Of a stretch of DNA of 64,000 nt, positions 1,225 through 62,961 are shown in pieces. How positions within the stretch are numbered: position 1 is the stretch's first letter; each line of letters opens with the position of its first letter. Location of the stretch: contig OZ237764.1 of NCBI GenBank assembly GCA_965178125.1, forward strand, positions 620,001 to 684,000, written 5' to 3'. Position numbers and translations under genes: made by a program. The notes beneath the pieces were generated by a model. It did no database searches. It worked only from the letters and a program-made list of their open reading frames with translations, and had not been told where the DNA came from. Source of the stretch: Bilabrum cf. latius (taxonomy: Eukaryota).

Positions 1225-3267
1225 GTGCTGAAAGTCGGCATGATTTATGCATGGCCGCAGACCTTATCGATTGAGGTAAGTGGCAAACTAGAGCACATCG
1301 ACATGGGTGTCAAGGTTGGCATGACCAGCGATCGTTTCGAGCTTGACAAGCTCGATCCGGACAGCCTGGTCCTAGCCACTCAAGTCGGATTCGGTGCAGA
1401 GGCAGCACAGGCTGCCGGCAGTGCGTCATTCAAGCCATACATCACTCAGGTATCGTCCAAAGATCCGCCGATTGCCGCTGTGGCCGGAAGCTCGGGTCTC
1501 AGCGTCGATTCATAGGGCGCTGGGAGCAAGGCCCAGTCTGGCTAGCCTTCCGGTGCTGTTGATTCTGCGGGTCAATCCGGCACGTTAAAATCTTCATCCT
1601 CTTCCGGTGCTTCGCGCGAGCCGACGTCCACCAGCTCCAGCGCTTGTGCTTAGAAGCCAGCCGCTGGAGCGGAGTTCCCATCCGATGGCACCGGCGCAGT
1701 GGGCTCTGGTGCTGGATAGGACAAGGCTTCGACGGCAACTGGAGGGGCAGCCACCGCGGCCCATAGTGAGCATACCTTGCCTGCCGGTGCATCTGTCGGT
1801 CCCTCAGTGCCCATGAGCGGGGCATCGGCGAGTGCTTCCTACCAGCAGTCCCCAGGTGGTGCCAAGGATGGACAGAAGATCTGGAGCGGCTTCCTCGAAC
1901 TGAGCCACAGGGTTCTATCGCGCGCTCTGGGCACGCTTGCGAGTGGGAATCCCGCCATCCTTAACTTCTGGCGCGAGGAAGTGCAGGGGGACGAGGGATC
2001 AGTCGTGTCATCCGATGGCTCGTCCACGGGGTCATCGCCACACAAGAAGCCGAGGCAATAAGACCACGCCGGGGACGGTTCGGATGGTTAGGACGGTGAC
2101 CATGGTCAGCAAGCCAGTGGTGGCGCGGCTTCCAAAGCAGGGGTGCCCGAAGCCGGCTACCCGCTCAGGATGGTGATGCCGCCCGTCGACGCGGACCAAC
2201 CCATCAGTTCACTCACGAGGATCACCAAGATGTCCACTCTGCTCGTGAGCATGGACCACTTCTTCGCAGCGCATTTCCTGGTAGATGCAGGGCAACATGC
2301 CGGGCCTGCACCGGTGATCCCTGAGCCACTTGATGCGGGCAAGGTGGAGGAGTCATCCAAGGTTGCCCTGGACAAAGCCGGCGATGTGCTTGCCAAGGCT
2401 CGTACCAGCGATGTAGTGCAGCGATTCTTGTCGCGGTTCCCAGACTCGGATGGGGAGACGCATAGCGGACCAGCAAGGTCGGCCGACTCCAGCGGGAGCA
2501 TGGCAATGGCATCCGGGCCGGCGTCTGGGCCTGGTGCAGCAAACCCAGTCCCATGGTCTGGCGCGAAGCGTCCTCGCACGATTGCAGTGCGTGGTGGCAA
2601 GGTCGATCATCCTGCCGGGCAGCCGATGCATTACTCGCATGGCGCGCAAACTGTGGAGAGAATGGCCCACCTGAACCTGCAAGCATTCGGGCTGGTGAAG
2701 CTGGGCTCCCTTGCCGGCACGACGGAGACATTCATACCTCTGGTCCAGGTCACATCTGGGATGACGACTGCCGACCTGAGAACACGTATCACGACTGCAA
2801 TTGATGCCGTGAAAGATGACGCGAAAGTGTTTGCAGTTCTGCTCGACCATGATTTGTTCCGAAGGATCATGCGTGAGGTGTACGCATTCAAGCAGAAGCT
2901 GGCCCCTGGTTGGCGCGCCGGAGGGATCGATCGTTCCAAGCTGAACCAAGACTACATTGCCCATTTGCGCGCTGCACTGACCGAAGCCATGGAGACCTGC
3001 CAATGGGTGGCTCTTTTGGATTCTTTGGTGGACGTGGGCGAGATCGCGATTCGCCTGGCGGAGCTGGGTGTTGTCGTGAACATGCGACCAGCAGAGGGCC
3101 AAGAATGGCTCAAGACCTTCACGCCGTCCAAATTGCAAGACTTCAACGAGATGGACTTGACTCCAGCACCCGATGAAGACGAAATAGCGATTGAGGCCGT
3201 GACATGGGCAGGCCCAATTCACTATGCGCACCACATGCTCCTGCTTAGAGACTGCCCGATGAATTGA
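1225..3267 (+). CDS. Host hypothetical protein, copy 1 (several in-frame TAG, one TAA at 2059-2061; may be a pseudogene or spliced)
   Basis: ORFs 1225-1515, 1777-2061 and 2143-3267 share one frame and are collinear with copies 2 and 3. Confidence 0.45.
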
Positions 3268-3280
3268 AGCGTTTGTCGTA

Positions 3281-4323
3281 TCATACTTGCTGCTTGCTTC
3301 TGACACCCATCAACACACGCACGCAGTCCGCATGGCCTCCCGCCCTTGCTGCTTCCAGCACGTCCATATCCACACCATCCACCACCCCGATCACCCACGC
3401 CCCACCAGCCAACTTGCCAAGCCTCAGCCGCTTCTCCAGCTCCATGGGCCTCCCCTCCCTCGCGGCCTGAAACACCATCGAGGCATCCCTGTGCGCTTCA
3501 TGTGCCCGCCGCCACCGCACCAGCTGGTCCCCCCGTCTGGGATCCAGGTGCTTCACACGAGCCAGCTCCCCTGCGGGCACTAGCTCAAAAAGCTTGCCCA
3601 GCACCTCTCGGGGCCTGGCTCCCCGCTTGCTGCTGTACAGAGCTTTAGGCACCGGCAAATGCTCCGTCATGCTCCCGTACGACTTGTGCGATTGCGTTTC
3701 CCTGCATGCCACATCCAGCCACGTCGCACCGGTCTCGCTGTCTAGCCCTTGTTGGTACACCCTTGACCCCCAGTGCAGGAGGATCGCGAGAGAGGCAGCT
3801 GATTTATAATCGCATGCTTGCCGTACAGCATAGACTACTACAGCTCGCCGCTACCGATCAAACCAGAATCTCAATATCTCTTCATGCGTCAAAGACTACC
3901 AACCTGTATCCAGGGTACCGGCTCGACACATATACTCGAGGGATTGCAGCGCGCTTTGGCGTATGAAGCTCGTAACCAGTGGCACTTGTTTCTGCGTGAT
4001 ATCGATCAATGCGAGCTCAATCAGTCACTCACTGAACTTTCACTATCCAAGGCAGGACACTAGCATAACATGAGGCACGGGGTAGACTTCTTGCTCACAC
4101 ATCGCAATCTTGCAGACTTTGACAGAGCTCGCTACAGCACTGCAGGGCGATCGAACGCTCCAAGTGCATCAGTTATACTCATAAACTGCGTGAAAGGAAG
4201 ACACTCTGTGTTCCAATGAACCATGGCGACAATTGCTGTGCATGTCTTGACTAGATTTGCATCGTGCTCACGCTGTGGAGCTCGCCATCGAGTGTCAAGT
4301 TCCTGGGCCAATGTGTCCTGCAT
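3281..4323 (-). CDS. Host hypothetical gene (probably spliced), C-terminal ankyrin-like segment, copy 1
   Basis: C-terminal LEAARAGGHADCVRVL; upstream ALGAFDRPAVL block conserved in all three copies and followed by a GTGAG donor-like site. 5' end uncertain. Confidence 0.4.
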
Positions 4324-4789
4324 AGCTTCGCTTCATACTTATCGAACAATGCAATGGCGACGGCATCATTGCGATCATTCAAGGCTTGAAGAAAGCGCCT
4401 TTTCAATGCTGCCCATTCCCTGCAACCAATAAAACCGAAGATTGTAGCAGAAATTTCAATCAGGAATGATACAGCAAAAGCTCATATATGCACCCATACA
4501 ATAAGCCCTACACACCTCATCTGGTCAACGCAGCTATTCTCAGGGCAGTCCTCGCGTGGACGATAGCCAACCCGAAGTGTACTTGTGTAAGCCTCTCTCA
4601 AGGATTCACGCGATACCATCCTACACAACTATCCACACTTTGCAAACGAGTAAATGCGAACTCAAGCTCAAATGTATTGTTGTGTCCAGACACCAGCAAA
4701 CTATGATTGATACTTTAGCTTCTGTGAGAGTGAGAACCAAACAAACCTTCCACCGCCGGCGTGACCAAAGAGCACCTAGCAAGGCAACC

Positions 4790-5938
4790 TCAGAATCCCA
4801 CACCAGCTATCGACCCGCCCTCCACACCCTCCACAAACGCACTCAAATCGAAACTACTAGGCACTTCACCACAACCAGACCCTCCCGCACTAGCCTTGCA
4901 ACCAGCCGATGCAACGGATGGCCCGCCAGCCCCACCATCACCAGCCCCGCCATCATGCGCTCCGCCCCCCAGCACGAACTTCACCTGCCGAGGCACATCC
5001 AGCACGACCACCCGCACCGAATCATCACCGTCCCCGTCCCGCACCCAGGCCTTGTCGCACGCCATCCGCACCTCGTCCGCAGCCGTGTCGTCCTCGGGCC
5101 CCGCGAAGAAGAAGCGCGTCTGCCCCTCCGCCCCCCTCGTCACGTCGAACCGCCGACTGGCCACCTCCTCCAGCGCAGAGCGGAGTTTCTCCGATTTCTC
5201 CGCGTCCGTCATCCTGTCTGCAAGCACCACCACGCAGCGGGTGCTGTTGAGCGCGCTGCCCGCACTCCGCAGCGGCGCCACCGGAGCCAGCCACGGGAAC
5301 TGCGCGGCGCCCGTCTCTGGTTCCGCAGCGATGGACTTGGCGTTGCGGTGCACCATCCGGCCCGTGGGCGCGTGGATGATGGTGAGCTGCGGGATCTTCT
5401 GCACCCTGCACGCCAGGGCCAGCTGCTGGCTCACGGCCCCGGCACCCGCCCCCGCTTCGCCGCCGTCTGCGTCAAACCGCAGCATGGGGAAGGGCATGGT
5501 CCCGGCGTACTCCTCCGTCTGGCCCCTGTCCGTGTCCGCCGACACGAAGATCACCTCGGAGCCGGGCCGGATCGGCTCGTCGGACTTGCTCTCCTCCTCC
5601 TTGGCTTCCTGCTCGGCCCCTGACGCTGCCCCGGCTCCAGAGGCGGCTCCAGCCTCGGCATCGGCCGGCGACGCAGCCTTCGCCGGTGCGGAACCGGCGC
5701 CGCGCGATCCGATCATAGCGATACCGGGGTACATGCCCGCCAGTCGAGGAGTGAAGGTCTTGCACGGCTTGCAGAAGGCAGCGCTGAAGTACAGAGCCAC
5801 GTACTCGCTGCGAGCGCACACCTCCTGTTGCGTCTCTTCTCTCCCGTCCTTGTGCTGGATGACGGCGTCTTTGCGGCGAGCGATCTGGGCGAAGGTGGGC
5901 CGGCTGCAGGGGAAGTTCAGTCCGGCGGAATCATCCAT
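4790..5938 (-). CDS. Host nucleoredoxin/thioredoxin-like protein, copy 2
   Basis: 382-aa ORF with YVALYFSAAFCKPCKTFTPRL (CxxC), EVIFVSAD and VQKIPQL, typical of the tryparedoxin/nucleoredoxin fold. Confidence 0.75.
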   Translation of the reverse strand: MDDSAGLNFPCSRPTFAQIARRKDAVIQHKDGREETQQEVCARSEYVALYFSAAFCKPCKTFTPRLAGMYPGIAMIGSRGAGSAPAKAASPADAEAGAASGAGAASGAEQEAKEEESKSDEPIRPGSEVIFVSADTDRGQTEEYAGTMPFPMLRFDADGGEAGAGAGAVSQQLALACRVQKIPQLTIIHAPTGRMVHRNAKSIAAEPETGAAQFPWLAPVAPLRSAGSALNSTRCVVVLADRMTDAEKSEKLRSALEEVASRRFDVTRGAEGQTRFFFAGPEDDTAADEVRMACDKAWVRDGDGDDSVRVVVLDVPRQVKFVLGGGAHDGGAGDGGAGGPSVASAGCKASAGGSGCGEVPSSFDLSAFVEGVEGGSIAGVGF

Positions 5939-6381: not shown

Positions 6382-8433
6382 GTGCTGAAAGTCGGCATGA
6401 TTTATGCATGGCCGCGGATCTTATCGGTTGAGGTAAGTGGCAAACTAGAGCACATCGACATGGGTGTCAAGGTCGGCATGACCAGCGATCGTTTCGAGCT
6501 TGACAAGCTCGATCCGGACAGCCTGGTCCTAGCCACCCAAGTCGGATTCGGTGCAGAGGCAGCACAGTCTGCCGGCAGTGCGTCATTCGAGCCATACATC
6601 ACTCAGGTATCGTCCACAGATCCGCCGATTGCCGCTCTGGCCGGAAGCTCGGGTCTCAGCGTCGATTCACGGGGCGCTGGGAGCAAGGCCCAGTCTGGCT
6701 AGCCTTCCGGTGCTGCTGATTCTGCGGGTCAATCCGGCCCCTAGGAGTATGAATCCTCTCCCGGTGCTCCGCGCGAGCCGACGTCCACCAGCTCCAGCGC
6801 CTCTTTGCAGCAGCCAGCCACTAGAGCGGAGTTCCCATCCGATGGCACCGGCGCAGTGGGCTCTGGTGCTGGATAGGAGAAGGCTTCGACGGCAACTGGA
6901 GAGGCGGCCAGCGCGGCCCATGGTGAGCATACCTTGCCTGCCGGTGCATCTGTCGGTCTCTCAGTGCCCATGAGCGGGGCGTCGGCGAGTGCTTCCTACC
7001 AGCAGTCCCCAGGTGGTGCCAAGGATGGACAGAAGATCTGGAGCGGCTTCCTCGAACTGAGCCACAGGGTTCTATCGCGCGCTCTGGACACGCTTGGGAG
7101 TGGGAATCCCGCCATCCTCAACTTCTGGCGCGAGGAAGTGCAGGGAGACGAAAGATCAGTCGTGTCATCCGATGGCTCGTCCACGGGGTCATCGCCACAC
7201 AAGAAGCCGAGGCAAGAAGACCACGCCGGGGACGGTTCGGATGGTGAGGACGGTGACCATGGCCAGCAAGCCAGTGGTGGCGCGGCTTCCAAAGCAGGGG
7301 TGCCCGAAGCCGGCTACCCGCTCAGGATGGTGATGCCGCCCGTCGACGCGGACCAACCCATCAGTTCACTCACGAGGATCACCAAGATGTCCACTCTGCT
7401 CGTGAGCATGGACCACTTCTTCGCAGCGCATTTCCTGGTAGATGCAGGGCAACATGCCGGGTCTGCACCGGTAATCCCTGAGCCACTTGATGCGGGCAAG
7501 GTGGAGGCGTCATCCAAGGTTGCCCTGGACAAAGCCGGCGATGTGCTTGCCAAAGCTGGCTCCAGCGATTTGTTGGATGCAGTACAGCGATTCTTGTCGC
7601 GGTTCCCAGACTCGGATGGGGAGAAGCATAGCGGACCAGCAAGGTCGGCTGAGTCCATCGGGAGCATGGCAATGGCATCCGGGCCGGCGTCTGGGTCTGG
7701 TGCAGCAGAACCAGACCCACGGTCTGGCGCAAAGCGTCCTCGCACGATTGCAGTGCGTGGTGGCAAGGTCGATCATCCTGCCGGGCAGCCCATGCATTAC
7801 TCGCATGGCGCGCAGACTGTGGAGAGGATGGCCCACCTGAACCTGCAAGCGTTCGGGCTGGTGAAGCTGGGCAACCTTGCTGGCACGACGGAGACATTCA
7901 TACCTCTGGTCCAGGTCACATCTGGGATGACGACTGCCGACCTGAGAACACGCATCACGACTGCAATTGATGCCGTGAAAGATGACGCGAAAGTGTTTGC
8001 AGTTCTGCTCGACCATGATTTGTTCCGAAGGATCATGCGTGAGGTGTACGCATTCAAGCGAAAGCTGGCCCCTGGTTGGCGCGCCGGAGGGATCGACCTC
8101 CCCACGCTGAACCAAGTGTACATTGCCCACTTGCAGACTGCGCTGAACGCAGCCATGGAGACCTGCCAACGAGTGGCTCCAGTGGATTCTTTGGTGGACG
8201 TGGGCGAGATCGCGATTCGCCTGGCGGAGCTGGGCGTTGTCGTGAACATGCGACCAGAAGAAAACCAAGAATGGCTTAAGGGTGTTAAGTCATCACAATT
8301 GCGGTCATTCGTTGAAGTAACGCTTCGGCGGCCAGACAGTCGACGTGAAGCGGCTATAACAGCCATGACTTGGGCAGGCCCAATCCACCATGCGCACCAC
8401 ATGCTCCTGCTTAGAGACTGCCCGATGAATTGA
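6382..8433 (+). CDS. Host hypothetical protein, copy 2 (ORFs 6382-6702 and 6934-8433 joined in frame across TAG codons)
   Basis: Only TAG codons separate the two ORFs; ends in TGA. A signal-peptide-like MAAVAAFLLVMLAFAPAALA starts in the same frame at 6124. Confidence 0.5.
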
Positions 8434-8441: not shown

Positions 8442-9109
8442 TCATACTTGCTGCTTGCTTCTGACACCCATCAACACACTCACGCAGTCCGCATGGCCTC
8501 CCGCCCTTGCTGCTTCCAGCACGTCCATAGCCACACCATCCACCACCCCGATCACCCACGCCCCACCAGCCAACTTGCCAAGCCTCAGCCGCTTCTCCAG
8601 CTCCATGGGCCTCCCCTCCCTCGCGGCCTGAAACACCATCGAGGCATCCCTGTGCGCCTCATGTGCCCGCCGCCACCGCACCAGCTGGTCCCCCCGTCTG
8701 GGATCCAGGTGCTTCACACGAGCCAGCTCCCCTGCGGGCACTAGCTCAAAAAGATTGCCCAGCACCTCCCGGGGCCTGGCTCCCCGCTTGCTGCTGTACA
8801 GAGCTTTAGGCACCGGCAAATGCTCCGTCATGCTCCCGTACGACTTGTGCGATTCCGTTTCTCTGCATGCCACATCCAGCCACGTCGCACCGGTCTCGCT
8901 GTCTAGCCCTTGTTGGTACACCCTTGTACCCCAGCGCAGGAGAATCGCGAGCGAGGCAGCTGATTTCTCATCGCATGCTTGGAGTGCAGCATACACAGAT
9001 ACCGCTAGCAGCTCCCGGTCAAACCAGAATTTGCGTATATCCTCATGCAACACTGTTGGCCAACCCGTATCTAAGATGCCAGCCCGACACACGTACTCGA
9101 GGGATCGCA
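8442..9109 (-). pseudogene. 3' part of host minus-strand gene copy 2, interrupted by the virophage (5' part lies right of 56503)
   Basis: Frame is open up to the junction; rejoining the flanks gives VKLILSLIRHGALRSLEYVCRAG, and the IRHGALRSLEYV core matches the uninterrupted copy near 63600. Confidence 0.55.
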
Positions 9110-9531
9110 CCCCCCCGCTACGGTAATAAATAAATTTATTCCCTTCGGTTAAGGAAACAAGTTTCAATAATTACGTTCAGTCAGAGCTAAAGCTCTTCCC
9201 TCTCTCCATTCCTTTTCTCGCTAGTCGCTCCAAAAGTCAAGGTGAGCCTCTTCATACTGCTACTTCATATAACTGCTTTATCCTTCTAATTATATAAAAT
9301 CAATTATATATAAAACTCTATACGATGACCATATCCATAAATTGCGTATTAGTATATGTAAGTTCTAATCAAAACGTGGATGTAGCCCTCTTGTGAAGGT
9401 GTTATGGGACTCTAGCCATTTTCTAGCCAAAAGTTCCATCACTTTATGGGACTCCATTATTCAACCTTCTAAACTACCTTCATTATACCCCCTTATCCTC
9501 GCTTATACCTTCACAAATGGAACAAACGCGC
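9110..9531 (+). repeat. Left terminal inverted repeat of outer virophage
   Basis: Reverse complement of 56073-56498 with a few mismatches/indels. Confidence 0.95.
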
Positions 9532-9810
9532 AACAGCAACTCGCTACACTCGTCATCGTCAAAATGAACCTGAACCTGAATATTGGAGTTCAGCATTTCT
9601 TAGGAAATATGAGGGTCTAACCAACAGGATTTAATATTAAAGTTTAAACCTTTATTAAGGGTGTATATGTTTTAAAGTATTAATCTATGCCTATACATCA
9701 CATAACCCCCATCATAACCCTAGTCTATAGGCTAAGGATAACCCCCACATAACCCCCCCACCTCTAAGCGTTTTTTTAAAACTCAAAAATTATAACTTAG
9801 TATTATAGAT

Positions 9811-10581
9811 ATGAACTTTAATAATTATGTCATTGAAAATCCCGTCCTAATGAAGCAGATTTATAAGGCTACAGACCATATTACAGATAGTACGCAAAAA
9901 ATTTTAGAGACCATTACTACGTATGTAGATTTAGGTGGTAAGTTTACAAAACCTAAATTAATTAATAAAAATATAGTTAGTGATATTAAAGAGAAAAAAG
10001 CCGTCAAAAAACCCAAGAAAGAAGAGAAACAGAAGACACAACACGATAATAACGACCAGCTTGAAATTAACCAAACATACATTCTAGATAAATTTAATGA
10101 CTATAAACCACAGAATAATAAAATTTATAATGATGTAGATGATTTACAACCGCCAGAATTAATTAGATAGACCGCAATAGATGAAAAATTAACCGGTATG
10201 GAGCCTGACAGTGAAAGTGAAATAAACAGCGTTAGTACCGAACAAGACTAGATAGAAGCAGAAACTGATGACGAAATGATACCTGAGGAAGAGAAAAAAA
10301 TAATAGGTGATTTAATTAAATTAGAGAATCAGGATTATAGGTATAAAGTGTCCGTAAATGGAAATGATGTATTTTTTGGTGAAATTAATTTACCCGATGT
10401 AGAGGCTCTTAAGAAATAGTTTAGCCCTCGTAAATTACAAATTATGATTTGTAAAATTAAAAGGAATTATAATATTAATAATAGCGATGATATCAACAGC
10501 CCTGAGTTTTGGAATAGCCGGGTATATTTGACCCTTGATGTGAAGGCCGAACACGAAAAACTACAAGATATCTATAATTAA
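9811..10581 (+). CDS. Virophage hypothetical protein (256 aa with TAG=Gln)
   Basis: Open frame through 3 TAG to TAA; C-terminal NSPEFWNSRVYL resembles SPAFWSRFVLW in the 21176 gene. Confidence 0.7.
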
Positions 10582-10944
10582 AAGCCCCTACAACTTAATA
10601 AACGGGCTAGAATTTAATAAAATATTTTAATATAACCGCTATATTAAAATCTATACGATGGCTATATCCACAAATTGCGTATAATTATATAGTATTTCTA
10701 GCAAAATGTGGATGTAGGGCCTCTTGTGAAGGTGGTATGGGACCTTTAGATAATTTTTTAAAATAGTTCCATCACTTGAGAAGGTGTTAAAATACACCAT
10801 TCATATCTCAATCTATTTTTTAGGGCTAAATGGCAAAAATCACCTTTTACCTTCATTAATTATTATAGCCCCTTTAAGCCCTCTATAATTAAATATGGCG
10901 TTTAAAATAGTTTAAAAATATATTTCTAATAATATATATAGAAA

Positions 10945-13900
10945 ATGAATAATAAAAACCTCGTTAGTTTCCCCATCAAGCACAATCAAAAAATACCTGA
11001 TGTTAAAAGCTGGCGATATCTCACCAAACCCGAGCCTAAACGATTTAATAATCAGAATATGGCAATTATCACCGGAGAAATTAATAATATAACCGTGTTT
11101 GATATTGATTCATATAAATGGAGCGATAAGAAGGAGCATTTATTCATCAAGAAATTTTCAGATGACTTTGTGAAGCGGTTCAACACATTCACGGTTAAAA
11201 CAGCGGGTGGAGGGTATCATTTATATTTTAAATATGATTAGAATATATTAACTACCACCAATAGAGATATTGACGTTGATATTCGTAATGATGGGGCTTA
11301 TGTAGTGGCACCACCAAGTGGCATAAATGGGTCAAAATACGAAGTTATTAATAATGTAGAAATAAAAAAATGTCCTAAGGAGCTTTATAAATTTTATGAA
11401 AAGTATATTATTAAATCCTCTAAGAAATCCAACGTAAAAGGGGCGAGTAAAAGGATATCAAAAATTGATAATCAAGATGTGAATAACTGTATGATGAAAT
11501 TCATTTTAAATGGTAAAGACTGGTCAATTATATTAAATAGATTAGATAAGAAATATTTAAATAATTATAGTGATTGGTATAAAGCAACCCTAGCGAGTAA
11601 ATATTTAGGATTTAAGAAGGAATGGTAGGAGTGGAGCAAGAAGGGCAATAAATACGACTACCACAAAAATAACAAGGTGTGGAACTCTATCCATTATTTT
11701 GATAAGTTAAAAACCTTTAATTTAGTTAATTCAATAATTTAGAATGATAAAAGTTTAAAGGCATTTGTGAAAGATAAGTATATTTCAAAGTGTTATTATC
11801 GTCCTTATGACGAGAATATTAACGGGTATACAGAAATTAATAAACCTAAATTAGATGATATAGAGAAGCCCGAACGATTTTTTAAATATGAATATAATTA
11901 TGTGGTAAAAAGTGATACAGGAACAGGTAAAACAACAGCATTTAAGAAATACATTAAACAGGTTCAAACGCCGTTCTTATCCATTGTATCCCGTGTATGT
12001 TTAGGCACAGAGCAATACGAGAGCTTTTTAAATGAAGATATTAAATGTGAGTTCTACCAGAATAAAACTTTTGATTTTGGATAGTCTCTTATTATTACGC
12101 CGGAAAGTATCCCCCAAATTGTGAATTATGATTTTTCTAAATACATCGTATTTTTGGATGAATTCAATAGTATTATAGAGCATATATTAAGTTCTACCAC
12201 GATGAATAATAATAGGGTTCTTGTATTATTTATTATTTTAAAAATGATCCGAACGTGTAAATAGTTTATTGCTGTAGATGCTGACATATCCCAGATAGCG
12301 ATGAAATTTTTAAAATGTGCTGGAGTAGAATTTAGCTTCATTAAGAATAAATATAAGCATTTTAAGGACGTAAAAGTATATTTTGAAAAAGACCAATAGA
12401 AATTTTACGATAAATTAAAAAGTGAAGATAAATTTATACTGGCGTGTGATAGCAAGAAGAACGCAGATACATTTTATAAAATGTTATGTAAAGATGGTAT
12501 AGAGGACGTTAAATTAATTACTAGTGATTTATTACCTGATGAGGATGTGAGCTTAGATAAATATGATAAAATTATATTTAGTCCTAAAGTCATTTACGGA
12601 TTAGATAGTGTAATGGAGCGCCCAGTGTATGGATTATATAAAGGAAAAACGATTCTACCGCCGTAGATGATGTAGCAACTGGCAAGATGTAGAAATCCCG
12701 AATATATGAATATATATTTTGAAGATGTAAAATCCATTTATCCAAGATATGAGAATTTAAAGGAGGTATAGACGACCTTAAATATGGAAATTAACGCATA
12801 GACAGATTTATATACTAAATTAGAAAAATACGAAAAAAGGATAATGTAGGAGAATGATATTGACATTGATATTTTTGAGGGAGAAGATGATGAAGAGATA
12901 GCCCATAAAGCAATGATAGAGGCATCATATAAGGTTTATTTACCACTCAAGAAATTATATAATTTCAAATGTGATACATACGAAACAAATAAATATATTC
13001 ATTTATAGCTTATTCTTAAAAACAGGGGTGCCGATGTATAGGTGGATAAGGAATTACCACAACGAATGAATAAATAGCAGATGAAAGAGGCGACAATGGA
13101 GATACTACAAGAATAGATTAATTCATTTGATGTAGAGAACGACCATATAAAAAGAAGAATTGAAATTTTAGGGCTACCAGAGATAGCCATAACGGAGGAT
13201 ATTAAAATGTTATTAATTGATAATTACAAATTAATGAATTATTTTAATTATGCTAATTTTAAGAGAAAAGATAAATATAAACTAATGACAGAATTAAAGG
13301 ATAGAAAGGATTTTAAGGATGAGAAAGCAAAAAGTACAAAGAATAAAATAATCATATTGTAGGAGATGTTATAGACGCTTAAATTGAATAAATTTGATTT
13401 AAGTTATACACGTAAAAATGAGAAATCCATTAAATATATAGAAATGGGTAAAAGATATGTAGAAGTAAGCGGGGCGAGATTATAGAAGCCAATAGAAACC
13501 GATAGTGAATTACACGGGGCAATAGTAAAATTATATAAGTAGTTATTTGGAAATATCAAAACCTCCTGGAGTATGGGGAATAAAAAGGATAAAAAGGATA
13601 GAGAATTAAGAATTAAATTCACCAAGGAGAAAGAATTATTTGATGAAGTTTATTAATGCTAACGCCGAATGGGGTTCGGGGTTGATGTGGCGATGCGTTC
13701 GAGACTCGAACACAGGCTCCGGTCTACCAACGCGAGGTTGCAACCGCCAGTGCGACCAGCAGCTTGCGAGGCATTCCCTCGTCTCCTTCCTTAGGGAAGG
13801 GGGCGGGGCAGCGCGGCAGTGGCCGTTCCGGCTCATGCCGTTGTTTTGTTTAGTATTTATGTTCGGTTTGGTGCTCACACGGGTAGTGCTTAACGCCGTG

Positions 13901-43015: not shown

Positions 43016-43016
43016 A

Positions 43017-47714: not shown

Positions 47715-47792
47715 TTTTGTTTTCCTTGTATATTATATACAACGAATAAAATTCTATGGGGTCGCGTCCCCATCCGACGAATTATCATTTTT

Positions 47793-48908: not shown

Positions 48909-48964
48909 TTTACTATAGACGTTTATAATTATGGGGTGGGTTTGATTACTTTTCTAAAGTATAA

Positions 48965-49456: not shown

Positions 49457-49521
49457 TTTATAGTATATCCACAGATATAATTTTTATCAGGTTGCCAAAA
49501 GATGTATATAAGAGGTTTTGG

Positions 49522-50703
49522 TCAATCTTTTCCTAAAAGATGTAATAGTTCCATAGCAACCTAATGATGAATATTTTTAGTGCTTCCTTTTACTTTCTTG
49601 GCTACATTCATTGCTGTATCATAGATAATTCTTTTTCCACCTGTTAATCCTTTCCCCTTTTTTGGTTTTCCACTTTCTCCTACAGTCATTGCGCGTGATG
49701 GTGGGTCTTCTAAATCAGGCTACTACATTCCATAGGGCGGACTAAACCCCGTAAATCGCTACACAGGTCTAGTAGCACGTTTTCCAATTCCCTGCTCAAT
49801 TTCCATCCTACTCGGCATATCATAGTACTCACCAGTTTCTGGGTCCCACGCCCCCGGAGTGCTTCCTTGCGGTAGTGGTCTTTCATTGCTCGCTGCGGCT
49901 AATATGGCATCTAAGTCTTTTGATGTTTTTGACGCATTACTACTTGAACCCTCTTGAAAATGCTAAAACATATTTGTCTGCCCCTGTGATGTTCTTTGTG
50001 AGAAATTCTTTCCCTATTCTAAATCCCACGCTATTCGTTGTTTTTCAGTTAAGGGTCTGTCTTGTTGTATTCTTTCTCTGGCTCTTTCCAATAACTATTT
50101 ATACGCACCCGAAGACCTTTTTGGAAGCTGTACTTGTGTTGGAGCGGAAAACGTGTTTCTTCTTGTTGTTCGAGCAGGTGTTTGTAAAGATGTTGGCTAC
50201 TAATCAATTCCCAACATTCCCTACGGTATTCGTTGTCCGGATGCCTCCTATATAACTTTCCCTAATTCTAAGAGTTGTTTTCTATCCTCAGCTGGAACTC
50301 TCTGCAGTCCTTCGTATCCTTTCCTTTGAAACCTCTCTATGTTAACGTATTGACGGGCGAGTTGTTGCTTCATTTGTGGAGACATATTGATATTACCAAC
50401 AAAATCCTTCAATGCTTTCACTGCTGGACTTACATTTTTACCCTCAATAATACCTTTCATTATACCAGATATTGACTTAGATATGATTTCCTCGTTGCTT
50501 TGGTCTGCCTATTTTCTCTACGCTGGAGTTCCATACCTTCCACTTTCTTTTAATCGTTCAATTTTTGCCCTTTTCCTTATAAAATCACTATATTCTGTTT
50601 CTAAATCTACGTCGTCTCTTGCCTATAAATCTAACATTTTAGCATTGTCCAGTTCCCTCTCTAGGGCTTGCTGAATAAGAGCATTCACTTTAGCAGTTTT
50701 CAT
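49522..50703 (-). CDS. Hypothetical protein (393 aa, inner)
   Basis: Contains track ORF 50248-50460; appears open across TAG to TGA. Confidence 0.6.
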
Positions 50704-50763
50704 TTACTATAAGCTTTTATAAAAAGCTTGGCCAAAAAATAAATTATGTTCATGTATAGTATA

Positions 50764-51003
50764 ATGGATATTGATAAGTGGATTATATAGAGAACCAAAC
50801 AACTCGCGCTATAGAAAGAACAAGACGCTTTAAATAGAGTTAAAAACAAACATATTAAAGTTGGAAAAGGCCGTAGTAAGCCTAAGCGGAAAGTGAGCGC
50901 CAAAATGAAACGCCGCAATAAACTTGTAAAAATGGTGATGTAGTAGACTGGTATGAGTTTACCTCAAGCAAGTCGGTATATACGAGAATAGAATATTATT
51001 TAA
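50764..51003 (+). CDS. Small basic putative core protein (inner)
   Basis: RRNKLVKMVM**TGMSLPQASRYIRE; similar to the C-terminus of 32626-33015. Confidence 0.6.
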
Positions 51004-51032
51004 AGAAACTTTTAGAAAAAGTTTGACCAAAA

Positions 51033-51935
51033 TTACATAAGGTAAGCCTACTTTTCTCCTAATAAATACCTCGGGTAATTCCTGTGGACACATACCCACC
51101 TAGAAGGCATTTTTAAGACTTTAGAGATTTCTTGTTTCTCAAGTCCTATATAATTTTTTAGTAAATACCTTAGAGAATGTGCGGAAGAACACTAAGGGAA
51201 TATAACGAACTTATGACTTTCCGCAAGAATAATTCGGGTACTTTTATAGTTGGTAGATAAATGACTTGTGATTAATACAGAAGTATTTGAATGTCTTCCA
51301 ACCTATAATATTTCATCCTGTAAATGATTGAGGGCTTCCCTTAACTTCTTATCTTTGATTGTATCAATATCATCCAAGATTACTAAGGCGTCCCTTAATT
51401 CCTAATGAATATCAATCGGGTTCTCCACCAGTTCCTCATTTAAAATAATCCTTTTCAGTCCTTTCACTTCATCTAAGACTTTATCCTACTATACTCGTGA
51501 AAATAAAATAATTCTCCTGTTTGGAAACATTCTATGATAATTCTTAGCATACTTGGAAACCCAAGTAGACTTCCCAGCACCTGATGGTGCGGTGATATAT
51601 ATTACCTCTCTTCCGTTTAAATTTGGTAATGATTGGAATTCACCCTATTTTAATGTAATCTCTTTATGTTTCTTTTCCTATGCTTTTTCATACAAGTATT
51701 TGATGTCTTCGTCTAGGGGTTCGACCTGTTTGATTAAGTGTCGTGCTAATAAATCCATTTTCCTCTGCGGAAATCGTTTCCCTGTAAGTGATGATACTTG
51801 AAAATCCTAAAATGACATACTATCATCTCCAAATTGGTTGTCTGTGTTTTCCGCCGTGTATAAAATACGTTTTCCGTGAGTGTCATATGCGATGGGTGTT
51901 GATTTTGTAGTTTCCTTCCAAGAAAAATGAGCCAT
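51033..51935 (-). CDS. Packaging ATPase (inner)
   Basis: YITAPSGAGKST, LVILDDID, IGRH. Confidence 0.9.
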
Positions 51936-52124
51936 TTTAGTGTATTTACTATATGTTTTTATTTTTTCTAAAGTGTTTTGTCTTTTTGTTGAAAACTTAT
52001 TTTGAATGATTGTCTTTTATGCTATCCACAAATTCCAAAACGGATTTTGTAGAAATACTTCTACGCTTAAATAGTGGTTAAGAGAATTCATCTCCCCCAA
52101 TATATGTTTCTATAATAAATATAT

Positions 52125-52661
52125 ATGGATTATGCTCTTAGCGATAGTGATATTCGTGTTCTCCTCCAAACTCCACCAAATATTAAGGGGTTTCTTCCTA
52201 CGTCGGTAAACATCGTTCCATATACAGAATTAGGATAGTACAATAGTATTGATGGATTATTTAGTCGTTGTAATTGTTGTATCATTCTATACCAAGAAGA
52301 AATAAATTCTGGACACTGGGTGTGCTTATTTAAGCGTAATAAAACAATATACTTCTTTGACAGTTATGGAATTCGTCCTGATAGGCAATAGCACACAATG
52401 AGTGAAAGCGTGCGGAAACGTTTTTATGAAGACCCTGAGTTAATATATTTAATGTATCATTCTCCGTATAAGATTGACTATAACCCATATTAGTTTTAGG
52501 CGGATGGAATGGATATAGCAACCTGCGGGAGACATTGTATAGTTCGTCTTTGGAATAGGGGAAAAAACGCTGATTAGTATAAAAAGTGGGTGGATAAGGT
52601 TTGTAAGAAACATACATTAAATCCTGATGAATTAGTGTATTTATTGACGTGTCATTTATGA
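52125..52661 (+). CDS. Maturation cysteine protease (inner)
   Basis: SGHWVCL, FFDSYG, YNPY*F*ADGMDIATCGRHC. Confidence 0.9.
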
Positions 52662-52940
52662 ACTCCAAAGGTAAAAATGTGAGAAGAACTTTGGGGTTCT
52701 TGGTTTTACTTCGATACCGTGTCGTTTGAAGTATCTAAATTGGCGGTCCGTATCTAAATGATTTAAATGGCTGTAATACCCTATTCTATCGTAAAATTGC
52801 TAATACCGCCTATCACCAAACGATGTAATATATTCATCATTTTCGTCAAAAACATCATACTTCTTATTCTTGCGTCTTGAGGGTGCTTTAAATAGAAAAT
52901 TCTCAACAACCTTTTCAAAATCGTAGGTATGTAGCTTCAT
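52656..52940 (-). CDS. Conserved small virophage/NCLDV-type protein (inner)
   Basis: SRRKNKKY..SFGDRRY*QF..YFKRH..PKFFSHFYLW; matches the C-terminal domain of 21176-21883. Confidence 0.65.
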
Positions 52941-53540
52941 AAGTACTTTATAGTATAGTCTTCTACTTATATCAAAGCCCGAGCTTCTTGTATTCCTTTA
53001 GTTTTTCGTGTAATTTTTTCCAAATACGTGGATTAATTTGCTTGACAATATGCTCTATCATCAACTCCTTTAAAAATGGGTTCATTTACTATAGTGATAT
53101 AGAATGGTCTTAATTATCATCTCTTGGGAAATCCAATCTTTGAAAAAGATATCAAAAGAGCGGAGGGCAAAGCCCGAGCATCTTGGAAAATTAATTTTAA
53201 TATTTCTTTGTATCCTATATTGTCAAAATTTTTCAATCAATTTTTGTGTTTTTAATTGGAAAACAATTATAATTTGTTTTTTATTTTCCTTTTAATTTTT
53301 ATGGTGGCATCATAGGAATTACAACATTTAATTTTAATCTTTGAAAAAGATATCAAAAGAGCGGAGGGCAAAGCCCGAGCATCTTGGGAACTTAATTTAT
53401 TTTTTCTAAGTCTCTTATAATTGACCTGTAAAATCTCTCAATTTTAATCTTTGAAAAAGATATCAAAAGAGCGGAGGGCAAAGCCCGAGCATCTTGGGGG
53501 ACTTTTCCAAAGGGACTTAAAATACGTTTTCGTTTTCCTT

Positions 53541-54107
53541 ATAATGTATCATCTCTTGGGTAATCGGTTTGGTTGCTTCGGAGAACAATTTAGTCGCTTG
53601 GGAAATCCTTGGGAAATCCTTGGGAAATCCTTGGTCGGTTCATCGGTCGGTTCATCGGTCGGTTTATCGGTTTGTCGCTTGGGAACATACCTCGGTCTCT
53701 TGATAAAATACCTTGTTCTCTTGGGGAAATCCTCGGTTGGTCTCTTGGTCTCTTGGGAATTCATCCTTCCGTTCCTACAGCAAACACAGAGATATTTTGG
53801 ACACTTGGTTAATTTCTTCATTTTTTCCTACTTTACTAAAACATCTCTGTCTTTGCTGTTAGAGTTTATAAGGGGGTTAAATATTAGAATTCTTCAATTT
53901 ACCCCTACTTCGTAGGAGTAAATTTTATATCTGAAAATGGGTACATAGAGGGGTTCTATAGGGGTTCTTGGGGAACCCCCTGTGAAATCATTTAGGTTTA
54001 TAGGGGAAACACTTGAGTTGCTAAATATGCCTTTAAAGGAGGGGCGAGCGTAGCGTAGCCCTCGTCCTAAACGCTTGGTGTACCTACCACCACCTGTTGT
54101 CCCCCCC
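53541..54107 (-). repeat. Right TIR of inner virophage
   Basis: Inverted copy of 37597-38199. Confidence 0.9.
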
Positions 54108-54512
54108 CATCTCCACTTTTATGTCAATCGTATATATTTATGTTGAGAAGCACAAACCATCAATGTTAAAGCATTTTCAACTTGATGACCTTCGTGTCCC
54201 TCCAGATTGTAATGAACGACTTAAAAAAAGAGTATTAAGTGAATTTGAAGAAATTGATTATATATCATATTTCGTTCAACCATTTAGAATAATACACAAG
54301 CTAAATGAAGAAAATGTTGAATGCCTAAGTGAAGACTTAAATGATACCGTAGCCATAGATTTATTGGTTAAAAAAGAGAAGGAAGCCATTGAGAAATCAA
54401 TAAAGAAATAGAAGGATGACATCATCAAAAAGGCTATAGATGACTTTATCTTACCCAAGGATTAAACTATATATTAATAATAATAATAATAGTATTATTA
54501 AAATTCAAAAAT

Positions 54513-54860
54513 TTATTCTAAAAACTCAATATCAAACCATTCATTTGAATCATCATATTCTTCAGCATACATCAACGATAATTCTATATACTCTTCTAAT
54601 TCACTATTAGTAAGGTTATCAATTTCTTCTTCTTTCAATAGTTTGAAATCGGTTCCGTTGTCATCATTAAAACTTTCAACTTGACTTTCTGCTTCCTTTT
54701 TATATTCTTCTTTCCAATTATCATTCCATACAACTCTCTTCGCTTGGTCTTTTAAAGTGTCAGTATAAAGCTTTTGTGCTTCTTCCTTATTATTAAACTT
54801 TTTAACCCAGTGTGTATGATAACATTCACTACCCCACGCTAATGATACAATATAAACCAT
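54513..54860 (-). CDS. Acidic hypothetical protein (outer)
   Basis: 115-aa ORF, ATG to TAA, AT-rich leader like neighbouring genes. Confidence 0.6.
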   Translation of the reverse strand: MVYIVSLAWGSECYHTHWVKKFNNKEEAQKLYTDTLKDQAKRVVWNDNWKEEYKKEAESQVESFNDDNGTDFKLLKEEEIDNLTNSELEEYIELSLMYAEEYDDSNEWFDIEFLE

Positions 54861-54901
54861 ATCTATAATAATTAAAAGTAAAATAATTATTATAATAAAA
54901 C

Positions 54902-56002
54902 TTAATTAAAATTATCCTCTATCTCTTCTCGCTCCTCGTTATCCAATACCCATTCTAATCTTGGAGGGTGCCACGCTCTAGCTATTAACTCCTCTTTATA
55001 CTTCTTGGTTTGTTCTATTGTTTTATCTTTTCTTTTTTTATAATATGGTATCAGTGTTGTGGAATAATCAATTCTAATATCATTAATTCCATTTTCTAGA
55101 TGGTTAAGCGAGGTACAATCGTAAAATATATAATAATCCATATCATCAACATTACTTAAATCCCAATTGTTCAATGGTTGATTGAATGATTTACAATTAC
55201 TAAACATTTCACCCATACTGTTAACTTTAGAAACATTCCAATTATTCAGTGGTTGATTAAACTTTACACATTCTCTAAACATACCATACATATTGTTCAC
55301 ATTTGAAACATTCCAATTATTCAGTGGCTAATTGAATGATTCACAGTTATGAAATAAAACACTCATATTTTTCACATATGAAACGTCCCAATCGTTCAGG
55401 GGTTGATTAAATGAATCACAATCAAAAAATAAACCTTCCATATCAAAAACACTAGACACATCCCAATCAGTCAATGGTTGATTAAATAGTTTACAGTATC
55501 TAAACATAAAATTATTTTTTTTTACATTTGAAACGTTCCAATTATTCAGTGGTTGATTGAATGATTTACAATATTCAAACATCCCAGACATACCCCAAAC
55601 ATTTGAAACATTCCAAGTATTAAGTGGTTGATTAAATAGTTTACAATATTTAAACATACCACTCATAGTCTCAACATTTGAAACATCCCAATTATTAAGT
55701 GATTGATTAAATGACTTACACCCAAGGAACATAAAAGCCATATTTTCTACGTTTGAAACATCCCAAGTATTCAAAGGTTCATTAAATTTTTTCTTATATC
55801 TAAATAAAGCACTCATATCTGTAATAAATGTTGTTACTATTTCACAAGGCTTCTTATCTTTTAATAAATCTTTTAAATGGTCTTTACACCTTGCTATGTA
55901 ATAGGTTTGACCTTCAAAATAGACGTTCCAGTTTATCCTTCTATAATAATCTTTCGGTTGTGTAGCTTTCAAGGTTCCATTTTCCCATTTTAATAATTCC
56001 AT
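54902..56002 (-). CDS. DUF285/BspA-like repeat protein (outer)
   Basis: Tandem 25-aa FNQPLNxWxVSxVxxMxxMF repeats; two track ORFs joined by one TAG at 55328-55330. Confidence 0.9.
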
Positions 56003-56072
56003 TCTGTATATACCTATAATAAATATATTTTTTAAGTCAATTTAAACGCTCTATAACAATTTAAAAATAAAA

Positions 56073-56498
56073 GCGCGTTTGTTCCATTTGTGAAGGTATA
56101 AGCGAGGATAAGGGGGTATAATGAAGGTAGTTTAGAAGGTTGAATAATGGAGTCCCATAAAGTGATGGAACTTTTGGCTAGAAAATGGCTAGAGTCCCAT
56201 AACACCTTCACAAGAGGGCTACATCCACGTTTTGATTAGAACTTACTATAATATATACCCAAAGTATGGATATGGTCATCGTATAGAGTTTTATATATAA
56301 TTGATTTTATATAATTAGAAGGATAAAGCAGTTATATGAAGTAGCAGTATGAAGAGGCTCACCTTGACTTTTGGAGCGACTAGCGAGAAAAGGAATGGAG
56401 AGAGGGAAGAGCTTTAGCTCTGACTGAACGTAATTATTGATGATGTTAATCATCCTTAACCGAAGGGAATAAATTTATTTATTACCGTAGCGGGGGGG
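56073..56498 (-). repeat. Right TIR of outer virophage
   Basis: Inverted copy of 9110-9531. Confidence 0.95.
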
Positions 56499-57467
56499 TC
56501 GCAGTGCACCATGGCGAATGAGGCTCAAAATTAGTTTCACTTGTTCCTGCACAAATTCAGCATACTATAAACGATTCCACGAATCGAGAGAAATTACATA
56601 AAAACTGTACATGGCGTTGACTGCAAACTCACGTGTCTATGCAGTCTCAGCATTGCAGACTTCCTGATAACTTGCTTGAGCACCACAGGGCGATCAAATG
56701 CCCCTAGTGCACCAGAGATACCCAAAAACTGCTTTACTACTCAAGATTTGACAGGTAACTAAGCACTACATTAGTTCGTAAACTGTTTGGTTTCCAAAGT
56801 CTTGTTTGGGGTGCAGACAGTGCTCACTCGGTTGTGCTCGCCATCATTCCTAAAACTCCTGGGCCAATGCGACCGGCCTAGCTTCGACTCGTGTTCGTTG
56901 AAAATTGCAATAGCCAGATCATCCTTTTTTTCTCTCATGGCTTGAATGAAGAGCTCCTTCAATGTTGACCACTCCCTGCATCCGACGAAGGCGAACAAAA
57001 CAGCATTTCAAGGTGGAAAACACAAGAAGAACTTCTTTTCGTTGACCATCTTGAAGCCGCATATTCTCATTAACGGCCATAAAGCCATCCATACCTCATC
57101 TCATCAGCGCAAGCCACCTCAGGGCAGTCCTCGACAGAGGGATACCCCGTCTACTGAATACGTGTATCATACGCCTCTGTCAAAAATTCTTGACGTTCCA
57201 TACTGCAGGATAGGCTTCCCCAATAAGAAACGTGAAGTTACGCCGCAACACAGAGACTGGCTTGGTGTAGGGACGATAAATTTATGTGAAAAGTCGTATC
57301 GTTACATTCAATCATCATCATCATCACCTTTGAGATCTCGCACCGGACCCTCGTCCAACACTTAATCTCTGTGGCACTCATCGAGACTCCCGAGTTCACT
57401 CAGGATGATCCAGAAGCACCTATACCCCGCCTTGGTGGGGTTGTGCTGCAGCTGGAGCTCCTGGATC

Positions 57468-60487: not shown

Positions 60488-60912
60488 TTTGCTTCAGCCT
60501 CTTGTTTTGCCTTTTGCCAATCACGCGATTGTTGCGTTCGATTCATGGAGGCTCTGGTTTATTCTAGAAACTGCATCGGATTGGCCAGCGTGTACTTCAG
60601 GGCTCAAGCTGAAGCTAAATCTGGTGCGGCTCCATGCAAACGGTACTGGTAAAGATGGCGGCTGTTGCTACATTCTTGCTAGTGATGCTAGTGGTCGCTC
60701 CTGCAGCTGTGGCCGAAGAGCAAGGAGATTCGTTGATGCTGCGGCAAAATACCATGGTGCAGCGACCTGACGGTATTCCGTAATCCGCCAGGAACTACTT
60801 AAAGAGGGAGCGAAAGAGACGAGCTGGCTAGAATAAGGCGGGCAAGCAGAAAACCTAGCCTTCGGGCGGTCAATCGAGTAAGATCTCAGCCCAAGGTAGC
60901 ACAGTCCATTCA

Positions 60913-62961
60913 GTGCTGAAAGTCGGCATGATTTATGCATGGCCGCGGATCTTATCGATTGAGGTTAGTGGCAAACTAGAGCACATCGACATGGGTGTCA
61001 AGGTCGGCATGACCAGCGATCGTTTCGAGCTTGACAAGCTCGATCCGGACAGCCTGGTCCTAGCCACCCAAGTCGGATTCGGTGCAGAGGCAGCACAGTC
61101 TGCCGGCAGTGCGTCATTTGAGCCATACATCACTCAGGTATCGTCCAAAGATCCGCCGATTGCCGCTGTGGCCGGAAGCTCGGGTCTCAGCGTCGATTCA
61201 CAGGGCGTTGGGAGCAAGGCCCAGTCTGGCTAGCCTTCCGGTGCTGTTGATTCTGCGGGTCAATCCGGCTCCTTGGAGTCTGTATCCTCTTCCGGTGCTT
61301 CGCGCGAGCCGACGTCCACCAGCTCCAGCGCTTCTGCTTAGAAGCCAGCCGCTGGAGCGGAGTTCCCATCCGATGGCACCGGCGCAGTGGGCTCTGGTGC
61401 TGGATAGGACAAGGCTTCGACGGCAACTAGAGGGGCGGCCCGCGCGGCCCATGGTGAGCATACCTTGTCTGCCGGTGCATCTGTCGGTCCCTCAGTGCCC
61501 ATGAGCGGGGCATCGGCGAGTATTCCCTACTAGCAGTCCCCAGGTGGTGCCAAGGATGGACAGAAGATCTGGAGCGGCTTCCTCGAACTGAGCCACAGGG
61601 TTCTATCGCGCGCTCTGGGCACGCTTGCGAGTGGGAATCCCGCCATCCTCAACTTCTGGCGCGAGGAAGTGCAGGGGGACGAGGGATCAGTTGAGTCATC
61701 CGATGGCTCGTCCACGGGGTCATCGCCACACAAGAAGCCGAGGCAAGAAGACCACGCCGGGGACGGTTCGGATGGTTAGGACGGTGACCATGGCCAGCAA
61801 GCCAGTGGTGGCGCGGCTTCCAAAGCAGGGGTGCCCGAAGCGGGCTACCCGCTCAGGATGGTGATGCCGCCCGTCGACGCGGACCAACCCATCAGTTCAC
61901 TCACGAGGATCACCAAGATGTCCACTCTGCTCGTGAGCATGGACCACTTCTTCGCAGCGCATTTCCTGGTAGATGCAGGGCAATATGCCGGGTCTGCACC
62001 GGTAATCCCTGAGCCACTTGATGCGGGCAAGGTGGAGGCGTCATCCAAGGTTGCCCTGGACAGTGCCGGCGATGTGCTTGCCAAGGCTGGTACCAGCGAT
62101 TCGTTGGATGCAGTGCAGCGATTCTTGTCGCGGTTCCCAGACTCGGATGGGGAGACGCATAGCGGACCAGCAAGGTCGGCCGACTCCATCGGGAGCATGG
62201 CAATGGCATCCGGGCCGGCGTCTGGGCCTGGTGCAGCAGAACCAGACCCACGGTCTGGCGCGAAGCGTCCTCGCACGATTGCAGTGCGTGGTGGCAAGGT
62301 CGAGCATCCTGCCGGGCAGCCGATGCATTACTCGCATGGCGCGCAGACTGTGGAGAGAATGGCCCACCTGAACCTGCAAGCATTTGGGCTGGTGAAGCTG
62401 GGCTCCCTTGCTGGCACGACTGAGACATTCATACCTCTGGTACATGTCACTTCTGGGATGACGGCTGCCGACCTGAGAACACGCATCACAGCTGGCATAA
62501 GAGACGTTACAGCTTCTGCGAGTGCTTTTTCAGTTCTGCTCGACCATGATTCATTCTCAGGGATCATGCGTGAGGTGTACGCATTCAAGCAGAAGCTGGG
62601 GCAACGGGCTGCTGTAGTTGACAGAGCTGGGCTCAACCGTGCATACGTCGAGCACATTAACAATGCCATACAAGCTAGACTGTCGGGTGCTCTTCAAGGT
62701 GCCCCACTGGCTCAAACACTGTTAGATGTCGGCGAGATCGCGATTCGCCTCGCAGAGCTGGGTGTTGTCGTGAACATTCGACCAGGAGAGGGCCAAGAAT
62801 GGATGAAGAGTTTAAAGCCGTTACAATAGCGGTCATTCGTTGAAGTATTGCTACAGCCGCGGGGCAATGCACGCCCTTTACATTTGGCTGCTGTTGCATG
62901 GGCAGGCCCAATCCACTATGCGCACCACATGCTCCTGCTTAGAGACTATCCGATTAATTAA
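60913..62961 (+). CDS. Host hypothetical protein, copy 3 (in frame across TAG)
   Basis: Homology continues past TAG 62827-62829 to WAGPIHYAHHMLLLRD, then TAA. Confidence 0.5.

Follow-up and report, generated by a model that had tools for sequence, protein, structure and literature searches.

A stretch of 64,000 nucleotides from the eukaryote Bilabrum cf. latius (GenBank assembly GCA_965178125.1, contig OZ237764.1, positions 620,001 to 684,000; hereafter the window) raises the question of which translation system reads its many in-frame TAG codons. These codons occur both in GC-rich host genes and in two virophages integrated among them. A preliminary description of this DNA left two answers side by side: either the host nucleus itself reads UAG as glutamine and the virophages have adapted to it, or the host uses the standard code and recoding keeps the integrated virophages locked until a giant virus supplies a suppressor tRNA. 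The first answer fits everything that we tested and is the best supported; we consider it likely that in the host nuclear code UAG encodes glutamine while UAA and UGA remain stops. That the host itself reads TAG in this way is the most likely explanation because intron-bearing host genes carry in-frame TAG codons, as the virophages do. The second answer is disfavoured by the TAG codons in constrained host genes.

Composition and self-comparison of the window delimited an AT-rich block of 47.4 kb between GC-rich (~60 %) flanks at positions 1-9109 and 56499-64000. The flanks are made up of three tandem copies of a host unit of ~5.2 kb with 88-92 % identity. Copy 1 extends over 1-5216, copy 2 over 5217-9109 and, resumed beyond the insert, over 56504-59747, and copy 3 over 59748-64000. 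Each unit carries three genes: a thioredoxin-like gene (minus strand), a gene termed P (plus strand) and a gene termed M (minus strand). The labels 'host' for the flanks and 'virophage' for the insert are well founded, since both the insertion structure and the virophage gene content are established (see below).

In-frame TAG codons in the host genes M and P

Gene M provides the strongest evidence for TAG as a sense codon in the host. Its copy 1 (3281..4619, minus strand; ATG at 4619, stop TGA at 3281) has four exons, and its three introns (4420-4515, 4186-4271 and 3992-4098) all have GT..AG ends. When the introns were excised, we obtained a single open frame of 349 codons with three TAG (4132-4134, 3896-3898 and 3851-3853), no TAA and no TGA. 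Contigs of sequencing runs contained splice joints with GT..AG on the minus strand at 3991>4099 (runs X5 and X9), 4185>4272 (X5, X8 and X9) and 4418>4515 (X8 and X9); no such M joints were found in the large run X3. The TAG at 4132-4134 is located in an 87-base exon between two of these joints. One X5 contig extends 70 bases or more to either side of joint 3991>4099, and positions 4132-4134 are absent from its listed differences, which is suggestive only.

Copy 2 has introns at all three of these positions (56976-57094, 56729-56827 and 56547-56632), and the partial copy 3 has them at two (63866-63960 and 63666-63778), again with GT..AG ends. The introns differ in length and are 55-59 % identical; exons 1-3 are 68 % identical and still open. 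In copy 2 the virophage insertion splits exon 4: its start lies with exons 1-3 (56504..57201, minus strand; TAG at 57151-57153), and its 3' part, which is free of TAG, lies on the other side of the insert (8442..9109, minus strand). Copy 3 (62958..64000, minus strand; TAG at 63519-63521, stop TAA) is truncated by the end of the window. Altogether the M exons hold five TAG columns across the three copies, each with TAG in one copy, and no TAA or TGA. The preliminary description had aligned the TAG at 4132 with CAA in copy 3, which we could reproduce; copy 2 has AAG at this position. Its caveat about possible introns was correct for gene M, although it does not extend to the TAG codons of M, which are exonic.

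The ratio of non-synonymous to synonymous substitution rates (dN/dS) of M was 0.35 at dS 0.87 (copies 1 versus 2, first 175 codons). For the last exon, 17 relatives were found among public metagenomes and run assemblies; these have a near-invariant motif in common and give weak ankyrin matches. A protein-atlas search with M likewise produced only weak ankyrin-like leads. The splice joints, the retained intron positions, the dN/dS value and the relatives with their common motif demonstrate that M is a spliced, constrained member of a real gene family, whose copies in the window gained TAG at different places.

Gene P is present on the plus strand as copy 1 (1225..3267, 680 codons; TAG at 1513, 1543, 1651, 1717 and 2089, TAA at 2059, stop TGA), copy 2 (6382..8433, 683 codons; TAG at 6700, 6742 and 6874, no TAA or TGA within the frame, stop TGA) and copy 3 (60913..62961, 682 codons; TAG at 61231, 61339, 61405, 61531, 61777 and 62827, stop TAA). 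A three-way alignment placed these 14 TAG codons in eight columns. TAG is common to all copies in two of them (1543/6700/61231 and 1717/6874/61405), in line with the earlier remark that some TAG are shared throughout. Three of the six variable columns pair TAG with CAG: TAG 1513 corresponds to CGG 6670 and CAG 61201, TAG 1651 to CAG 6808 and TAG 61339, and TAG 61531 to CAG 1843 and CAG 7000. Two others pair it with TTA or TTG (TAG 6742, found in copy 2 only, with TTA 1585 and TTG 61273; TAG 62827 with TTG 3133 and TTG 8299), and the last with GAG (TAG 2089 and TAG 61777 with GAG 7246). The interchange of TAG and CAG between host paralogues, which had led to the question in the first place, was thus reproduced at every coordinate. 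Taken alone, the CAG pairing in P would be no more than suggestive of glutamine in host genes because C-T transitions are common.

Homology had also been reported to continue past TAG 62827. We were able to align 44 further codons, up to one stop column (TGA, TGA and TAA in copies 1 to 3) that follows a conserved C-terminal motif. We rejected the observation that no frame ends in TAG as evidence, as the frames had been called with TAG read through. As a separate observation, only 8 bases separate the convergent stop codons of P and M (8431-8444), an unusually tight packing, and the 3' untranslated regions must therefore overlap.

In frame 0, copies 1, 2 and 3 of P contain five, three and six TAG, one, zero and zero TAA, and no TGA. 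The other five frames contain 3-19 TGA, 1-5 TAA and 0-6 TAG per frame, with 13-19 TGA in the two shifted plus frames and 3-16 in the three reverse frames. The TAG frequency in frame 0 equals that of the non-coding frames, and there is no sign of in-frame avoidance. All four indels within the P reading frame are multiples of three, and dN/dS was 0.58-0.61 in frame versus 0.90-1.38 in the two shifted frames. We also simulated the divergence of P by re-placing the derived substitutions of each copy at random and counting the stop codons gained. The expected gains were 3.87 TAG, 2.33 TAA and 1.66 TGA; those observed were 4, 1 and 0. TAG gains match the neutral expectation, and therefore there was no selection against TAG in P. 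We conclude that the coding frame of P is maintained and that TAG is tolerated in it.

If the GC-rich paralogues were decaying pseudogenes or non-coding repeats, their TAG codons would be meaningless. Some features of the array would suit such decay. The 'few' in-frame TAA of the preliminary description shrank to a single, copy-specific one in P (2059-2061 in copy 1; GAA in copies 2 and 3); contigs of three public runs (X5, X8 and X3) read G at 2059. P is an orphan, its low-complexity first half holds seven of the eight TAG columns and shows dN/dS values of 0.5-1.1 with few changes, and the virophage interrupts M copy 2. Decay does not, however, account for the absence of TGA from 2,045 frame-0 codons of P, compared with 13-19 per copy in the shifted plus frames, or for indels in steps of three. 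Nor does it explain how M kept its frame and intron positions under constraint at the divergence given above, or why its 17 relatives share a conserved motif. We therefore regard it as very unlikely that the paralogues are dead or non-coding. The constrained host frames tolerate TAG and do not tolerate TGA or TAA. In total, 13 TAG columns occur in two constrained host families (eight in P, five in M), both of which are lineage-restricted.

Two nested virophages and the meaning of TAG

The outer virophage (9110..56498) has terminal inverted repeats of 428 bp and is bounded by a 5-bp target duplication, TCGCA (9105-9109 and 56499-56503), that lies inside M copy 2. The empty insertion site is intact in M copies 1 and 3. 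Once the virophage and one of the two TCGCA copies had been taken out, M copy 2 again showed an open frame of 353 codons with a single TAG (57151-57153). The target duplication, the empty paralogous sites and the restored frame show that the virophage is a true insertion into this host gene copy. Nested in it is an inner virophage (37596..54109) with inverted repeats of 619 bp and 92 % identity.

The insert as a whole encodes Sputnik-type major and minor capsid proteins, two integrases with rve and chromodomain, protein-primed polymerases and a primase. Both virophages have capsid, penton, polymerase and rve+chromo integrase genes of their own; those of the inner one comprise a Sputnik-type major capsid, a penton, a protein-primed DNA polymerase (pPolB) and the integrase. 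The inner major capsid gene (45948..47714, minus strand; 14 TAG) matches PF21915 and PF22031, and minor capsid matches (PF21507) were located at 28716-29669 and 47793-49007. With TAG read through, the capsid matches to Pfam were full-length. Capsid genes, integrases, inverted repeats and target duplication together identify an endogenous virophage of the Sputnik/mavirus type. Scans of IMG/VR recovered no related virophages (one alignment was too divergent for use).

TAG usage was counted in 29 virophage frames, leaving out the frames in a GC-rich repeat element (see below) and four overlapping antisense frames. TAG made up 188 of their 512 Gln-type codons, with up to 19 in one gene and with seven and five in the two integrases. 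The inner capsid protein has 2264 relatives, and in an alignment with the best 150 of these, TAG scored best as glutamine over the 12 columns used (log-odds +4.6; the next residue, aspartate, had -2.7). The same scoring assigned eight out of eight control codons correctly (CAA, CAG, TAT, TAC, GAA, TTA, AAA and TGG).

The closest capsid relatives in the database are fragments whose start directly follows residue 121 or whose end directly precedes residue 384 of the query, two residues that are encoded there by TAG. To judge from these boundaries, the comparison suggests that related virophages elsewhere are recoded as well and that standard-code gene calling has cut their proteins. As a further observation, four database proteins predicted under the standard code (P0153, P0003, P0006 and P0050) start or stop exactly at TAG positions of genes in the window. 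Public gene calls for the host organism and for related virophages are probably fragmented, and standard-code gene callers do fragment genes in this genome.

TAG could also be ambiguous in the host, that is, read through in some contexts and used as a stop in others without full reassignment. Such ambiguity would agree with conserved or strongly biased genes avoiding TAG, such as the thioredoxin-like gene (no TAG; GC content at third codon positions (GC3) 0.79), and weakly biased genes tolerating it. With 188 of 512 Gln-type codons of the virophages being TAG, and up to 19 per gene, however, partial read-through would yield almost no full-length protein, and the TAG gains in P equal the neutral expectation. 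Partial reassignment is thus highly improbable in our judgement.

Several further features of the virophages were recorded. The ends of the inner virophage begin with a run of eight G and are flanked by the short duplication ATCT; the outer ends begin with a run of seven C. Directly after the primase stop, the outer virophage contains a GC-rich element (13654-20134) that has no reading frames. In it, a tandem repeat of 284 bp occurs 17 times (14380-19206, 98 % matches), and there are split direct repeats, in which A1 (13654-13849) equals A2 (19769-19964) at 100 % and B1 (19623-19772) equals B2 (19985-20134) at 99.3 %. The order A1...B1-A2-B2 is one that we take to resemble the ends of Ngaro/DIRS retrotransposons. 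One outer-virophage gene (54902-56002, minus strand) contains only one TAG; its product of 366 residues consists of DUF285 repeats (PF03382, E = 2e-128). A box GCGTTTAAAAT..CTTAAA is found upstream of five outer-virophage genes, and a TATAG(T/A)A-like element stands immediately before many virophage start codons; upstream regions with such motifs include 10865-10944, 24010-24089 and 39375-39454. Both motifs are candidate promoters of a helper giant virus.

The nesting also bears on whether the flanking array is a host chromosome at all. It might instead belong to some other GC-rich element of viral or mobile nature, such as an endogenous giant virus that has spliceosomal introns, or hold host genes that are translated only during infection. 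The very compact layout, with three genes in 5.2 kb and the P and M stops 8 bp apart, is in keeping with this, as are the tandem ankyrin-like orphan genes and a weak protein-atlas lead from M to a Nucleocytoviricota DUF5903 cluster (score 0.90, 82 shared features; a lead only). On the other side stand a 1-kb gene with three introns at conserved positions, the intron in a related thioredoxin-like gene from a metagenome (see below) and the chromodomains on the integrases. Moreover, the nested insertions of a virophage and a repeat element point to long chromosomal residence. An array of viral origin or of infection-only expression is therefore quite improbable.

The host code weighed against a viral suppressor

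The thioredoxin-like gene is the only broadly conserved host gene in the window. Copy 2 of this nucleoredoxin-type gene (4790..5938, minus strand) has 382 codons, matches PF13905, contains no TAG and ends in TGA; the other copies are located at 3-722 (partial) and 59336-60487. Its relatives are 59-61 % identical. Scanning metagenomes with the thioredoxin-like alignment returned a single contig (L001) of 2,491 bases. The thioredoxin-like gene on this contig has an intron, and its exon uses CAA and CAG; its TAG triplets are all intronic, so that no evidence on the code comes from that gene. Downstream on the same contig, a frame of 302 codons (1586-2491, plus strand) is open to the contig end with three TAG and neither TAA nor TGA; it matches no Pfam family. 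The frame hints at a sense reading of TAG in a related organism too. A spacer of ~2.1 kb (57200-59330) between M copy 2 and thioredoxin-like copy 3 is not present at the junction of copies 1 and 2; its GC content is mixed, its mirror-like frames are rich in proline and glycine, and no gene could be recognised in it.

The absence of TAG from the one broadly conserved gene, together with its TGA stop, is what a host of the standard code would lead one to expect. In such a host, the TAG codons of the virophages and of P and M would be read only with a suppressor tRNA from a giant virus, and recoding would lock expression. There is precedent in TAG-recoded phages of standard-code hosts (part of PMC9523058), and some metagenomic virophages are described as carrying tRNAs, one of them an ochre suppressor (part of PMC6905037). 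In the 64-kb window, ARAGORN found no tRNA genes and Rfam gave no matches, which leaves the 47 kb of virophage DNA without a tRNA. The suppressor would have to come from an unseen virus, and all virophage genes would depend on that virus, including the integrases with their seven and five TAG; there is no TAG-free set of early or maintenance genes as in recoded prophages. The code is, moreover, common to two quite different virophages. A standard-code host should avoid in-frame TAG, yet frame 0 of P contains TAG at the level of the non-coding frames, and the exons of M contain it as well. P and M would need to be dead or translated during infection only, despite two host-GC gene families with in-frame TAG being under purifying selection, one of them with three spliceosomal introns. 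Taken together, a suppressor-dependent lock on a standard-code host appears unlikely.

A host code with UAG as glutamine needs one assumption, namely that the host decodes UAG, and it covers the host genes and both virophages. The GC-rich eukaryote's own translation system would read UAG as sense, most likely as glutamine, while UAA and UGA would still terminate. Host genes would therefore drift freely between CAG, TAG and other one-step neighbours. The two nested virophages would share the code because they are translated on the same ribosomes as the host, and TAG would have an identical meaning in host and virophage genes. The decoder would presumably be a host tRNA-Gln(CUA), combined with an eRF1 that no longer recognises UAG.

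Several findings weigh against this host code. The sample of host genes is narrow: the TAG-bearing families are lineage-restricted, P is an orphan and the array is unusually compact. The thioredoxin-like gene has 12-13 Gln codons and no TAG in any copy. We consider this absence neutral rather than supportive because, if TAG made up ~15 % of Gln codons, the chance of finding none in one copy would be ~0.12 by our estimate. Glutamine partners in host genes are few (CAG at three of six variable P columns, CAA at one of five M columns), and glutamine in host genes is therefore deduced mainly from the virophages; as codon pairings, these partners would fit glutamine without proving it. Even in the virophage capsid the glutamine signal is not uniform, as most relatives have Y or F in the TAG column at residue 275. 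P copy 1 may be dead, a recent pseudogene, because of the TAA at 2059, and the deficit of TAA and TGA gains in the P simulation is weak when taken alone (P = 0.094). Gene P gave no Pfam family, no PDB match and no sequence relative (relatives sought at lengths of 375-1196 only), and an AlphaFold model of its C-terminal 377 residues was unusable (mean predicted local distance difference test score 36.9). Finally, none of the runs behind the splice joints is recorded as RNA; three are RNA by guess only, and X5 is marked 'probably DNA'.

Comparison with known systems

Nuclear codes in which UAG alone was reassigned to glutamine are known from very few lineages in the portions of the literature used here, namely Iotanema and two phyllopharyngean ciliates. 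In Iotanema spirale (Fornicata), UAG encodes glutamine and UAA and UGA are stops (part of PMC5304391), a code of the NCBI table 15 type. The window probably has this code variant too: TAG would be a sense codon behaving as glutamine, TAA and TGA close the frames, and homologous copies end at one column. Iotanema was studied by transcriptome; the present host, in contrast, is GC-rich (~60 %) and has introns of ~90-120 nt. The ciliates Hartmannula sinica and Trochilia petrani likewise use UAG for glutamine and have kept UAA as a stop (part of PMC11687900). The host would share with them a reassignment that affects UAG alone while UAA still terminates. Ciliates typically have AT-rich genomes and very short introns. 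By these traits, the window would not appear ciliate-like. Being GC-rich and having introns, the present host would provide a further independent case in which to study how UAG and UAA are uncoupled.

Viruses that match an unusual host code have a parallel in Streblomastix strix, whose endogenous Polinton-like viral elements use the TAA/TAG = Gln code of the host, from which the authors infer a long association (part of PMC10120064). There, as probably here, small DNA viruses integrated into a protist genome use the non-standard code of that protist. In S. strix, however, TAA and TAG are both reassigned and the elements belong to a Metamonada capsid group, whereas here only TAG would be reassigned and the virophages are of the Sputnik/mavirus type. 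Other protists thus already provide examples of this type of code and of endogenous viruses matched to the code of their host, and the host of the window is a probable further UAG-only lineage with virophages matched to its code.

The virophages may also be compared with those of Cafeteria, a protist that uses the standard code. Cafeteria virophages reportedly have an Ngaro retrotransposon, a GC-rich repeat element, inside the virophage; the element inside the outer virophage here differs from it in lacking reading frames. With the endogenous mavirus-like virophages of Cafeteria burkhardae, those of the window share AT-rich DNA, inverted terminal repeats, rve integrases and a location in a GC-rich protist genome (parts of PMC8547959 and PMC10945749). 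In a literature search directed at virophages and UAG/glutamine or an altered genetic code, recoded virophages did not come up. The authors who described tRNAs in metagenomic virophages, including the ochre suppressor, took them as a hint of recoded hosts (part of PMC6905037). Virophages that follow the code of their host would be tied, together with their giant virus, to hosts with that code.

TAG-recoded ('code 15') phages, which occur in standard-code bacteria (part of PMC9523058), are the model for a suppressor-dependent lock. TAG means glutamine in these viruses, as it probably does here, and their hosts keep it as a stop. In contrast to that case, the host genes of the window bear in-frame TAG and the virophages have no suppressor tRNA. 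Among eukaryotic viruses, giant-virus genomes from metagenomes have been best annotated under alternative codes, including code 15, with their hosts lacking (part of PMC13524828). It is possible, though we say so tentatively and think the full combination less probable than its absence, that a GC-rich, not yet described lineage with UAG alone reassigned to glutamine is the missing kind of host for the metagenomic giant viruses with TAG as glutamine, that host, giant virus and virophage share one rare code, and that the virophages described here are the first recoded ones on record. For the recoded giant-virus genomes that lack hosts, the window points to a specific candidate type of host. The change of code would be the same as in the code 15 giant viruses, and the value of the present case is that host and virophage, and with them host and virus code, are seen side by side.

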